Below, piece after piece: positions 26,920 to 29,978 of a DNA stretch of 41,769 nt. The notes below the pieces were generated by a model, which saw only the letters and a program-made list of their open reading frames with translations, ran no database searches and was not told the origin of the DNA. The stretch lies in sequence record DRR723986_7890, one strand, 5' to 3'. The stretch's first letter is position 1, and the number at the start of each line of letters is the position of its first letter. Made by a program: the position numbers and the translations under genes.

Positions 26920-28023
26920 CTATGATGCCTCGCGCATTCGCTCAACGAGCTGCACCAGGCCAAGTGCGGACGAACGGATATTGAAACGCTCCAGTGTCCT
27001 TGTCTGGGCCTCGCGTAAGTTCTCTTCGAATCCGCTGGGAGGCTGCTTGAGTGTCTCGAGTGCACGTTCAAGGGCACTGGCCAGGCTATCGGTATCCTTG
27101 GGCTGGCTTGGCCAGAAGCCCAGTTGTTTTTCCGGTCCAGTATCCAAGACTTCACAAGCACCGCCAACTCGGGTTGCAACAATTGGTGTAGCCAGCATTT
27201 TCGCTTGAATCAGTACCAGAGAAAGCCCTTCTGAGTGCGATGGGTGGACAAGCAAATCTGCTGCGTCGATTAGATTATTGACGTCGTCGCGGTAGCCCAA
27301 GAGCTTCACATAGTTTGCCACCCCGAGCGTATCGGCTTGTTGCTGAAGCTGCTTTGCATTTGGCCCTGTGCCCGCAATCGCAAGCACAAGATCGCTGCGT
27401 TGTTGCCGCGCAAAGGCGTCGATTAGCTCCGAGTGCCCTTTAACGTCAATCAAGCTACCGACGGCGACCAACAGCCTGCCTTCGGTGGAAACACCAAGCT
27501 CTTCTCTGATTTGAAGCGAGCGGCCAGGATCAACGTCAGGTGGAGGGCAACCGCCGGGTACCACTGAAGCCAGTGAACTATCCAATCCGCCGTCGACCAC
27601 GACCCGGCGTGCAGCCTCAGAGACACAGGCAACCTGATCGCTCAGCCATCGATACTTAGTGGCACTCCGCAATGGAAAAATCGTGTGCTTGTAAGCGACC
27701 CTTAGCGGCTGACTCTTTCCCCACCATAAACACGTTGGTCCAGCAAGAGTGACTGAGTGCGTATCATTCAGAACAACAACGTCGGGGGACCATTTGCGAA
27801 GCTGTCTCCGAAGCCTGAACCAGTCGACGATGCCACCATGTCGGCTTCGTGCAGCGTAAATGACTTCACCGGAATCGTCGGAAAGTCGCTCCAACACATC
27901 GGTTCCGCGTCGGGCCACCCAACAGACGACGTGCCCGAGCTCTTGGAGCTGACGAGCGAGTTGAAGCATGAGGTCTTCACCGCCACCCCAATTCTTCTGC
28001 GTGCTCACAAAGCAGAATCGCAT
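26920..28023 (-). CDS. Glycosyltransferase family 4 (GT-B)
   Basis: WGGGE, VGSLIDVKGH, LGYRDD, PSHSEGLSLVLIQA, TRVGGACEV. Start reassigned to ATG 28023. Confidence 0.9.
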   Translation of the reverse strand: MRFCFVSTQKNWGGGEDLMLQLARQLQELGHVVCWVARRGTDVLERLSDDSGEVIYAARSRHGGIVDWFRLRRQLRKWSPDVVVLNDTHSVTLAGPTCLWWGKSQPLRVAYKHTIFPLRSATKYRWLSDQVACVSEAARRVVVDGGLDSSLASVVPGGCPPPDVDPGRSLQIREELGVSTEGRLLVAVGSLIDVKGHSELIDAFARQQRSDLVLAIAGTGPNAKQLQQQADTLGVANYVKLLGYRDDVNNLIDAADLLVHPSHSEGLSLVLIQAKMLATPIVATRVGGACEVLDTGPEKQLGFWPSQPKDTDSLASALERALETLKQPPSGFEENLREAQTRTLERFNIRSSALGLVQLVERMREAS

Positions 28024-28387
28024 GCTGAATTCGCTGTCGTCCAGTTGAGTTTTCTGATCATTCGCGGGCAGAAACGAGCCCGAAAGAACTGCGATTGCTC
28101 GCACGATGCCGAATCCTACGCACTTTGCGGGCTCCCGGCTATGGCAGAGCGACAGAGTTCCGGAAGTGCCGGAAGCGCCGATGCCAAAGCACGCATGGCG
28201 GACTGAGCTGAACCTGTTTTGGCGCAGAATCATTCAGCGTAGAGCCCAGACGCGGGCGTGGCGGTCTGGCTCGGATTGAAATTGCTGATTTGATTGTCCA
28301 CGGATAGTCTACGTAGCCCTAACAATCAGAATCTCTAAATTTGGTGTGCTATTGCTAGCATAGGGTGGACGATAACACTTGCTCACA

Positions 28388-28523
28388 GGTGCGTCGCCAG
28401 GTCTCCTCTTAAAGTGGCTACGGACAGTTCACAACCTTTCGACAAGGAATGTGGCGCACCGCTCTTGACCCTGATCAAGAAACTGTCCTATAAGTGCAAT
28501 AACCACTTTACCGCAGGGGAGAT
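28388..28523 (+). ncRNA. Candidate cis-regulatory structured RNA in flgM 5' leader
   Basis: Nested helices 28401-28420/28500-28523 and 28422-28429/28481-28488, two inner hairpins, and a crossing helix 28388-28397/28451-28460. Confidence 0.55.
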
Positions 28524-28532
28524 TGACCCAAT

Positions 28533-28844
28533 ATGCAAATTCAAGGTTTGCAATCATCTGTAGCTTCACAGCCGATTCAAAGAGCTGCTAACAGCTTGCC
28601 GACAGAGAATGTCGCCAAGCCGGCATCTTCGGCTGCGAATCCGGTTGACCAAGTGAGCTTCTCGGCCGAGGCCCAGCAGCTTCTCAAGGCACAGGCCACT
28701 GGCGCGACCGAAGCGCCGGGGACGACCGACGGCATTCGCGTCGACAAAGTTGCGGAGATTCGGCGAGCGATCGCAGATGGATCTTACGAAACTGAAGACA
28801 AGATGTCCGCGGCGCTCGATCGCCTGCTGGATTCATTCGCTTAG
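28533..28844 (+). CDS. flgM: Anti-sigma-28 factor FlgM
   Basis: DQVSFSAEAQ and IRVDKVAEIRRAIADGSYE motifs; GGGGAG RBS. Confidence 0.9.
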   Translation: MQIQGLQSSVASQPIQRAANSLPTENVAKPASSAANPVDQVSFSAEAQQLLKAQATGATEAPGTTDGIRVDKVAEIRRAIADGSYETEDKMSAALDRLLDSFA

Positions 28845-29459
28845 CTAGCCTATTAGGTTCACGCCCGAACCTACTGGTGCAAGACTGGCCAGCGCTCGCG
28901 AATCAGCTTATTCATTTAGTGCGTCTGCCAATGGAAGTGGTTCCAAACCACCGGCAGTCTCGCTTTGGCGGGTGCACTCGGAATCTATTCTCACGCCAGT
29001 CTAAATACCGCGGATCTCTTCACACCGAGCCTCTTCTATGAAGGCTCGAATCGGGAAACTGACCAGCTCGAAGATCTGCAGCTCGGTGCGAAGTCCCTGG
29101 AAGTGTCCTGCGAACCCTACCTGACTGGCAAGGAATCCTTTCCAGGCCAATTAGACGCCCGGAACTACTCCATCTGTGGATTTGCCACACGACATTTCGG
29201 GGGCAAAACCGCCAGGGCTATCAACTTTGGTTGTTGAGTCTGAACCTGGGCCACGAGATTCCAACGACGACCTGGTTGGCAACCGCCTAAGAGCCAAACG
29301 CACTTGGCGATGCAAGCATTGCCGCCGAGGCGTACAATGGGACAAATGGTCGGGCTGGACGGTTCCGTGGCACCACCCCAATCGTCTATTTGCTTGATTC
29401 CGCGCACCAGAGAATTCGTTCCAGAAGCTAATAATTTGCCTGCTGAGCCAAGAGAGATC

Positions 29460-29978
29460 GTGAGTAACCAGGAAGAACCATCCGAAGATAAGTCACTCGG
29501 CAGAGTCGAGGTTTCTCAAACTCCGATCCAGCGTTTTGAAGAGTACCTGCTGGCGAGAGGGCAACGAAAGACGAAGCAAAAGACTTACCTTGTGGAGCAA
29601 GTCTTCAGTCGGCACGAGCATTTTGACGCCGATCAACTCATCGACCAATTGCCGAGCAAAGGCGATGAAAACTACGTCAGCCGTCCAACTGTCTATCGGA
29701 CGCTCAAAGAATTTGTCGAAGCGGGACTACTGAGAAGTTTTGAGCTCAATGGCAGAAGTGTCTACGAGCACGATTACGGCTACCCAGAGCACGACCACTT
29801 CTATTGCATTAAGTGCAATGAACTGACTGAGTTTCAATCGGAAGAACTCGCTCAGTTGCGCGACTCTATCGCTCGCAACCATCGATTTCGTGTGCGAAGC
29901 CACCGCTTGATCATTCAAGGCATCTGCCATGAGTGCAGTAGTCGCCGTAGCAAGAGACGCAGCCAAGACCGCGTCTAA
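29460..29978 (+). CDS. fur: Fur-family transcriptional regulator
   Basis: HFDADQL, VSRPTVYRTL, EHDHFYCIKC, GICHEC. Start reassigned to GTG 29460. Confidence 0.9.
   Translation: MSNQEEPSEDKSLGRVEVSQTPIQRFEEYLLARGQRKTKQKTYLVEQVFSRHEHFDADQLIDQLPSKGDENYVSRPTVYRTLKEFVEAGLLRSFELNGRSVYEHDYGYPEHDHFYCIKCNELTEFQSEELAQLRDSIARNHRFRVRSHRLIIQGICHECSSRRSKRRSQDRV

Follow-up and report, generated by a model that had tools for sequence, protein, structure and literature searches.

Within the 41,769-nucleotide (nt) stretch of DNA from record DRR723986_7890, referred to below as the window, positions 28368-28532 of the + strand immediately precede flgM, the gene for the anti-sigma-28 factor, and an earlier note made from the letters alone had proposed that they encode a structured RNA sequestering the flgM Shine-Dalgarno (SD) sequence. 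FlgM is the checkpoint protein that links late flagellar expression to completion of the hook-basal body, and the regulation of the swimmer/sessile life cycle of planctomycetes is, to our knowledge, almost unknown. Our analysis points to this segment being a 5' leader of flgM, driven by a sigma-28 promoter and belonging to a family of cis-regulatory RNAs that occurs, as a single copy in front of flgM, throughout the Pirellulales, and in which the protein CsrA would operate a relay between SD mimics, an anti-SD and the SD; to this explanation as a whole we assign a probability of roughly 0.4. That the region is a real cis-regulatory leader of flgM is, we think, very likely. Judged from its sequence, the leader RNA is previously undescribed and order-wide, with a conserved domain that contains a predicted anti-SD. 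The case is carried by the conservation of the element, its genomic position, the covariation of one helix (helix A) and the predicted complementarity between its core and the SD.

The FlgM protein of the window has 31 homologues, with E-values reaching 3e-45, which were aligned (alignment A1) and led to 80 loci fetched from species genomes. Even in relatives whose FlgM is only ~50% identical, blastn detects conservation of the non-coding leader DNA. A sequence-only model built from 11 leaders (R1, from alignment A2) matches 31 of 81 sources, always on the + strand and upstream of flgM; in whole genomes, it finds exactly one copy in 34 of 151 same-family and 36 of 49 same-genus genomes. Of 151 genomes sampled from the order, 21 likewise contain one copy according to a structured model of the core (R2), which, run with lax filters on five genomes, gives no second significant copy, the extra matches having E-values of 0.3-0.6. 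A match to the FlgM hidden Markov model follows each of 60 nhmmer matches (60/60), with a start codon that can be assigned in 59, and 16 of the 22 weak R2 matches that were examined lie 119-469 nt upstream of a FlgM open reading frame (ORF). Two larger alignments were used for structure: A4, a MAFFT alignment of 66 sequences not fitted to any structure, and A5, a model-fitted alignment of 95 matches (94 distinct rows), which leans towards the model by construction. A flgM ORF follows nearly all 95 of the latter. Carriers in culture include Blastopirellula marina DSM 3645, Rhodopirellula europaea 6C, Neorhodopirellula pilleata and Stieleria species, and a pattern scan of metagenomes returned 54 loci, of which three are real members and two of those identical, adding two further distinct leaders. 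In other families of the order the element shrinks to a minimal core of ~50 nt, consisting of the -10 box, helix A, AGGUCGA, a C-rich tract and GACAYGGAAU, without the first of the two GGA sites described below.

The element matches no Rfam class, as had been suspected from the sequence. With Rfam 15 (4227 models, lax settings) nothing is found at E <= 10 in the window leader, and the leaders of 10 related loci give no match at E <= 1. Weak matches fall outside the leader only (c-di-GMP-II-GAG, 18.7 bits against a cut-off of 40, E 1.7; CRISPR-DR9, 17.2 bits); the first of these sits in the flgM coding region (28659-28722) and was taken as chance. Our literature search found no description of such a flgM leader element. 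The sole planctomycete-named candidate cis-regulatory RNA that we found is the Rhodopirellula-1 motif of Weinberg et al. 2010 (PMC2864571). Its sequences are unrelated (AACAA..GAUGAAC...CGUUAUC...) and share neither helix A nor the GGA blocks, and an identity of the two was rejected. In the supplement, that motif is flagged for overlap with a transposase-associated motif (PMC2864571).

As for the promoter, the window carries a sigma-28 (FliA)-type -10 box, GACGATAA (28368-28375, +), resembling GCCGATAA, from which we predict a transcription start site (TSS) at ~28382-28384. This arrangement recurs in relatives, which bear out the proposal of a structured 5' leader behind a box of this type: in 72/72 family members helix A is preceded, at a distance of 6-26 nt, by a CGAT(A/G)- or CGAA-type box, where by our own estimate chance would provide one in ~0.2 of such intervals. 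There is indeed no canonical TAAA -35 element 15 nt upstream of the -10 box, the TAAA of the window (28336-28339) being 28 nt away, and comparison of upstream regions reveals TCAAAGTT- or TCGAATC-like boxes at -35 in some relatives. A GCTAGCA palindrome (28354-28360), which may be a regulator site, stands 7 nt upstream of the -10 box, too close for a -35 element; it also precedes the box in at least L183, L184, L186, L187, L189, L139, L180 and L048.

The best-supported structural feature of the leader is helix A, formed by GGUGCGUCGC (28388-28397, +) and GUGGCGCACC (28451-28460, +), which pair in the window through eight Watson-Crick (WC) and two G.U pairs. It is the helix that the earlier note had described as crossing the others, and of all those proposed the only one with clear covariation; we consider it real. 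Its family core is GCG(n)UCGC (28391-28397) paired with GCGRCGC (28451-28457), with a one-base bulge of variable identity. When helix A, the hairpins H1 and H3 and the inner GUC/GAC helix (see below) are scored together on A4, 71.8% of cells are paired, as against 26-43% with slid partners, and the covariation score of 0.138 (0.113 in shuffles) is reached by 0/500 shuffles. The individual pairs of helix A show the underlying exchanges: pair 9-83 is GC in 61 sequences, AU in 2 and GU in 2; pair 14-80 is UA in 43, UG in 17 and CG in 5; and pair 15-79 is CG in 49, UG in 10 and UA in 1. On A5, the helix-A pairs are 94-97% paired, pair 14-196 being UA in 47, UG in 32 and CG in 13, and 0/500 shuffles reach the observed value on any measure. 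The outer extension of helix A in the window, GGU/ACC, was rejected as a conserved part (23-38% paired, that is, 15 to 25 of 66 on A4). One member of the genus, L196 (G197:C35), departs from this pattern: it keeps the 3' two-thirds of the leader, with a helix A 3' strand reading GCAAUGC, and its 5' part (promoter, helix A 5' strand and AAGUC) is swapped for unrelated sequence.

The loop closed by helix A is made of invariant or nearly invariant blocks, A(A/G)GUC, A-Y-GGA-n-n-GC and GACA-n-GGA-W-W, the last of which runs into the helix A 3' strand. This domain, situated next to the promoter, is the conserved unit of the family; alongside its pyrimidine tracts, of which there are one or two, the invariant motif ANGGA occurs once or twice (CUAYGGACAG and GACAnGGAAU). 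In the window the first block is followed by the pyrimidine tract UCUCCUCU, the two together spanning 28399-28409 (+) and including the predicted anti-SD, the 5' strand of the long-range helix P1a (28401-28409). The GUC and GAC of these blocks could form an inner helix, whose three invariant pairs carry no information; its fourth pair (46% vs 35% expected, p = 0.007) and fifth (38% vs 29%, p = 0.009) are weakly above expectation, and in the window the fourth is U.C. A K-turn at the junction of helix A and GUC/GAC was rejected, since by eye the two bases before GUC are mostly AA or AG, not GA. Also discarded was the idea that the 5' tail (S1) pairs with sequence following helix A or preceding the SD, for which no cognate advantage is seen in type A, the clade of the window.

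How would such a domain reach the ribosome-binding site? The SD region of the window, AGGGGAGAU (28515-28523, +), is the 3' strand of P1a and contains both the SD, GGGGAGA (28516-28522), and a GGA; its GGGGAG is invariant in type A. Sequestration of the SD, the central claim of the earlier note, is what folding predicts: in the window the mean probability of the SD being unpaired is 0.00 and the GUCUCC tract takes all of its pairing in the partition function (share 1.00), and of 15 type-A leaders folded from the predicted TSS, 14 have 6-7 of their 7 SD bases paired in the minimum free energy (MFE) fold. Over 71 distinct leaders of all subfamilies, extracted from 14 nt upstream of GUC, the mean probability of an unpaired SD is 0.14, and the main SD partner lies in the core loop (positions 18-45 of the extracted leader) in 61/71. 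That partner is either the tract right after GUC, which takes more than half of the pairing mass in 34/71, or the C-rich tract before GACA. Moreover, core-loop pairing of the SD persists in leaders of 200-380 nt with unrelated intervening sequence, the duplex between core and SD is stronger for cognate than for non-cognate combinations (-13.17 vs -11.73 kcal/mol; permutation p = 0.0002), and the core is the single best window of its length for the SD in 27 of 46 long leaders. This complementarity across leaders supports SD sequestration and generalizes it, the conserved domain itself carrying the anti-SD. The leader probably acts through sequestration of the SD by the core.

The remaining helices of the earlier note fared unevenly. 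Checked pair by pair, each one is present in the window exactly as it had been described. P1a (28401-28409 x 28515-28523) has seven WC and two G.U pairs with no mismatch; P1b (28410-28420 x 28500-28510), with UAACCACUUUA as its 3' strand (28500-28510, +), has ten WC pairs and one mismatch; P2, with GGACAGUU (28422-28429, +) as the 5' strand that overlaps GGA site 1, has eight WC pairs with 28481-28488; hairpin 1 consists of CACA/UGUG and CCUU/AAGG, four WC pairs each; and hairpin 2 (28463-28468 x 28475-28480) has six. The MFE fold of the RNA 28376-28545 (-48.7 kcal/mol) includes P1a, P1b, P2 and both hairpins. However, shuffles of the same segment average -40.0 kcal/mol (z = -2.02) and 9/200 of them fold equally well; the fold being only modestly better than chance on a single sequence, the reality of the feature rests on conservation in relatives. 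We scored the proposed structure on A3, an alignment of 31 full-length type-A leaders, in which the paired cells amount to 89% for the core of the crossing helix, 81% for P1a, 78% for P2 and 63% for the hairpin 2 region. P1b falls to the level of its controls (36% against 38-47% when slid) and is specific to the window's clade, an equivalent pairing being visible by eye in the nearest leaders, L186 and L027, without being general. In the register that had been proposed, 47% of the hairpin 1 cells are paired, the family register being UUCC/GGAA instead, and the structure taken as a whole shows no covariation above shuffles, 87/500 of which reach its value. The comparison of flgM upstream regions gives a divided answer, with clear covariation for the crossing helix, barely any for P1a and P2, and a control-level result for P1b. 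Overall, the structured leader, the predicted SD sequestration and the crossing helix are supported, while P1b and the register of hairpin 1 are not.

P1a and P2 themselves are conserved in sequence on both strands and hence offer little covariation evidence. The six core pairs of P2 are paired in 84-100% of cases (26 to 31 of 31 leaders), with one compensatory change, in L193; P1a shows no change on both sides in the 31 type-A leaders. The 3' strand of P2, AACUGUCC (28481-28488), is followed by an invariant UAUAAG (28489-28494), and within this stretch (28481-28494, +) CUGUCCUAUAAG is nearly invariant in type A. Helix A crosses both P1a and P2, so that a pseudoknot could form; the crossing helix covaries and the two that it crosses are conserved without covariation.

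The invariant nucleotides of the loop center on GGA. The window has at least two GGA motifs, one of them overlapping the SD: ACGGACAG (28420-28427), AAGGAAU (28444-28450) and the SD GGGGAGA. In A4, both A.GGA and GACA.GGA are invariant, and in A5, GACA.GGA (GACANGGA) is found in 93/95 members and a second, upstream ANGGA in 77/95. A GGA, of the GGGAG or GGGGA type, also occurs in the SD window of all but a few of the 71 leaders, as judged by eye with no formal count; one SD window has the sequence GAGGGGA and another is displaced from the likely SD. Site 1 is displayed by a mini-hairpin, H1 (28414-28432, +), in which GUG (28414-28416) pairs with CAC (28430-28432) and the loop shows ACGGACAG. 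The stem of H1 is 2-5 base pairs (bp) long and varies freely (GGC/GCC, CAGC/GCUG, UGC/GCA, GUG/CAC, UGUGA/UCACA); on A5, pair 44-120 is GC in 39, AU in 7, GU in 5, CG in 1 and UA in 1, and pair 45-119 is CG in 52 and UG in 21. Cognate H1 strands outperform non-cognate ones (permutation p = 0.0005), four controls being non-significant. Site 1 thus lies in the loop of a covarying stem or, in type A, is alternatively paired with CUGUCC to give P2. Site 2, GACAAGGAAU, belongs to hairpin H3 (28437-28450, +), made of UUUC (28437-28440), a GACAA loop (28441-28445) and GGAA (28446-28449). A UCC or UUCC tract located 5-9 nt upstream can pair with site 2 in the family (54-58% of cells paired), with the compensatory variants AUUCC/GGAAU, CUUUC/GAAAG and AUCCU/AGGAU (permutation p = 0.002). 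Site 2 is located in one of two settings, the 3' strand of H3 or an internal loop that separates helix A from GUC/GAC.

The CsrA dimer recognizes motifs of the A-n-GGA or ACA-n-GGA type. Consequently, an invariant ANGGA that is duplicated ~20-30 nt apart, with one copy in a hairpin loop, points to a CsrA-type protein. The relatives of the window have the required partners: all five Pirellulales genomes searched encode 5-8 copies of CsrA (PF02599), and one copy of FliW is found in 4/4 relatives' genomes, adjoining csrA in two. These adjacent fliW-csrA pairs lie at G003:C5:671933-673864 and G004:C10:194961-195779, and in G003 a flagellin gene stands directly next to them. In Campylobacter jejuni, flgM mRNA has been co-purified with CsrA and shifted by it in gel assays (PMC4894983). 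CsrA may thus be the effector here, an identification that we hold as tentative.

The pyrimidine tracts of the core are complementary both to the GGA motifs and to the flgM SD (GGGGAGA), which sets up three players: the GGA sites as SD mimics, the anti-SD (GUCUCC in the window) and the SD. In the window, the predicted partners would be CUGUCC for site 1 (P2), UUUC for site 2 (H3) and GUCUCC for the SD (P1a). A free anti-SD would pair with the SD, in P1a together with P2, and initiation would be blocked; an anti-SD kept in the helix-A domain would leave the SD open. Helix A is under the clearest selection and is transcribed first, yet is energetically above the MFE, and we therefore see a relay in this leader, which would either alternate between two folds or form a pseudoknot, with a balance that would be set from outside. 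A GGA-binding factor would set this balance, most plausibly a CsrA paralogue of the FliW-CsrA module, so that synthesis of FlgM from the late (sigma-28) transcript would be coupled to the state of flagellar export. Control could run in either direction. As free CsrA signals blocked flagellin export, activation of FlgM synthesis would make the coherent circuit; alternatively, the anti-SD would be released on CsrA binding and flgM repressed. A CsrA-operated relay of this kind is our preferred, though still tentative, account of the leader.

Several observations weigh against it. Helix A is absent from the MFE fold of every full-length type-A leader that was folded (15/15), and forcing it in nested folding costs +2.4 to +14.2 kcal/mol (7.5 in the window), which makes the two-fold switch a model rather than an observation; that two alternating folds exist is something we infer. 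P1a and P2 show almost no compensatory change on A3, and P2 has C.A mismatches in L183 and L184. The permutation tests cited above ignore phylogeny, and the effects they detect, although absent from the controls at significant levels, are of modest size (0.3-1.4 kcal/mol). In many predictions the GGA of site 2 falls within a stem (H3), unlike the loop of classical CsrA sites; the minimal cores of other families hold a single GGA site; and the block GACAnGGAAUGCGRCGC, together with the sequence-conserved helix A, is more elaborate than typical degenerate CsrA sites and would equally suit a ligand pocket or another protein. Finally, the core motif is not shared by the flagellin leaders of four relatives inspected by eye.

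Among the closest known systems are CsrA-controlled flagellar mRNA leaders such as hag of Bacillus subtilis, governed by the Hag-FliW-CsrA partner switch. Like that leader and flaA of C. jejuni, the flgM leader is preceded by a predicted late-flagellar promoter (sigma-28/sigma-D type), has at least two GGA motifs with one in the SD, may present the upstream GGA in the loop of a short hairpin, and comes from organisms whose relatives encode FliW and CsrA. In contrast to hag and flaA, the gene under presumed CsrA control encodes an anti-sigma factor rather than flagellin, the GGA sites are set in a larger domain closed by a long-range, sequence-conserved helix, each with a pyrimidine partner of its own, and the core can be 100-470 nt from the SD. 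Since the distance from core to SD can be this long, control would be exerted via an anti-SD relay and not through a bridging dimer that simply covers the SD. With CsrA as effector, the FliW-CsrA partner switch would reach beyond flagellin to the anti-sigma factor, and an SD-mimic/anti-SD relay acting over hundreds of nt would differ from the textbook occlusion model. Whatever the effector, the A5 alignment provides a testable handle on post-transcriptional control of the FlgM checkpoint and a candidate for a new Rfam family.

The same architecture could be that of a small-molecule riboswitch, in which the helix-A domain would be an aptamer (for c-di-GMP or ppGpp, for instance) whose ligand holds or frees the anti-SD and so gates flgM translation. 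An order-wide conserved 5' domain with a covarying closing helix and invariant loop nucleotides, an anti-SD within that domain, a highly variable downstream sequence (100-470 nt) resembling an expression platform, and a topology of helix A and P1a compatible with a pseudoknot all speak for this reading. The conserved domain with its variable platform, the anti-SD inside the domain and the crossing topology recall translational riboswitches, for example those of the SAM-II and preQ1 types. Unlike these, the leader has no Rfam match among the 4227 models, it is bound to a single gene at one locus per genome, and its invariant nucleotides, ANGGA in two copies, bear the signature of a site for a protein (CsrA) and not that of a ligand pocket. 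The minimal core is, moreover, merely a 7-bp stem with a ~25-nt loop, and the gene context suggests no candidate ligand. We consider this reading unlikely, and we hold it rather unlikely that the helix-A domain serves as aptamer in a novel, orphan class of riboswitch that senses a small signaling molecule such as a cyclic dinucleotide or an alarmone. Were a small molecule the effector, a new riboswitch class would be at hand, and the swimmer-to-sessile decision of Pirellulales would be linked by RNA straight to a metabolite.

Another trans-acting factor might bind the core in place of CsrA, whether a base-pairing small RNA (sRNA) or some other RNA-binding protein; a flagellar chaperone, an FlbT-like factor and FlgM itself are examples. 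The invariant single-stranded blocks (AAGUC and GACAnGGAAU) do exceed what a CsrA site needs, and in Salmonella the translation of the class-3 flgM transcript is reportedly chaperone dependent. Direct repression of flgM by an sRNA, CJnc230, is documented in C. jejuni, where post-transcriptional control of flgM tunes the late flagellar genes (PMC11187230); that sRNA (CJnc230/FlmE) acts in trans and is processed from the flgE mRNA, whereas the element described here acts in cis within the flgM leader. No second R2-related locus was found in the five genomes scanned, our analysis did not identify a candidate sRNA or protein, and CsrA is the simplest explanation of the GGA signature; we regard another factor as rather improbable.

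The leader could also work as a folding device that depends on no factor, with helix A forming first and leaving the SD open until refolding into P1a/P2 closes it, in the manner of a kinetic timer or a thermometer. The order of stabilities fits, as the SD-sequestering fold is more stable than the helix-A folds by 2.4-14.2 kcal/mol in 15/15 leaders, helix A is transcribed first and most clearly selected, and P1a has G.U pairs. Neither the invariance of the ANGGA and AAGUC loop nucleotides nor the duplication of the GGA site is explained in this way, and the Rfam scans gave no match of the ROSE or fourU type; we regard such a device as quite unlikely.

Least probable, and in our view very unlikely, is that conservation acts mainly on DNA, as promoter or operator, and that the RNA folds are incidental, TTGACC-N18-TATAAG (28465-28494) being a second, housekeeping-type promoter with a short unregulated leader: CTTGAC and TATAAG (28464-28494) are invariant and exactly 19 nt apart in 29/31 type-A leaders with a spacer that varies, the sequence matches the sigma-70 consensus at 10/12 positions and the GCTAGCA palindrome recurs upstream of the -10 box, but the G.U and compensatory changes of helix A make sense only in RNA of this strand, the complementarity of core and SD holds across unrelated downstream sequences, the two blocks are adjacent in other subfamilies (UGACGUAUAUU), which is impossible for a -35/-10 pair, and the -10-like hexamer ends in G where T nearly always stands. 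Because of this G the promoter scan does not call the site (0 sites), and the sigma-70 assignment was dropped. The fixed spacing of CTTGAC and TATAAG may reflect a constraint of RNA geometry or else a further promoter within the leader, from which transcription would begin near 28501; such a promoter, if present, would yield a short leader that escapes the core. In addition, a reading as an upstream ORF or leader peptide was rejected, as an AUG arises in GACAUGG only when U occupies the variable position, where other leaders have C or A, and the gaps in the leaders are not multiples of three.

Downstream of the core, hairpin 2 of the earlier note corresponds to H4 (UCUUGA-CCCUGA-UCAAGA, 28463-28480, +), which holds the invariant CUUGAC (28464-28469). 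Hairpins in this region adopt three different registers, with a mean z of -1.56 over 31 leaders. The downstream block of other subfamilies (UGACGUAUAUU...GGGACGGA) differs from that of type A: (U/G)UGACGUAUAUU followed by GGGACGGA(C), another GGA-containing element, is found 18-21 nt past helix A in L105, L107, L052, L048, L110, L095 and L092.

The gene served by the leader, flgM (28533-28844, +), starts with the ATG at 28533 and encodes a protein of 103 amino acids matching Pfam PF04316 (E 6.9e-11). No flagellar neighbor genes surround it in the window, and neither the small ORFs between flgM and fur nor the 1131-residue ORF upstream match a Pfam family. The ~460 nt between flgM and the Fur gene (28845-29303) are without any Pfam-family ORF, and flgM is not followed by a flgN-like gene. 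Beginning 10 nt past the flgM stop is a perfect 7-bp hairpin, UAGGUUC-ACGCCC-GAACCUA (28854-28873), which lacks a U-tract and was not called by the terminator scan. The leader element occupies the 299-nt divergent intergenic region immediately before flgM, between that gene and an upstream GT4 glycosyltransferase gene on the opposite strand (26920-28233), and a gene for a Fur-family regulator (29304-29978) lies downstream of flgM.

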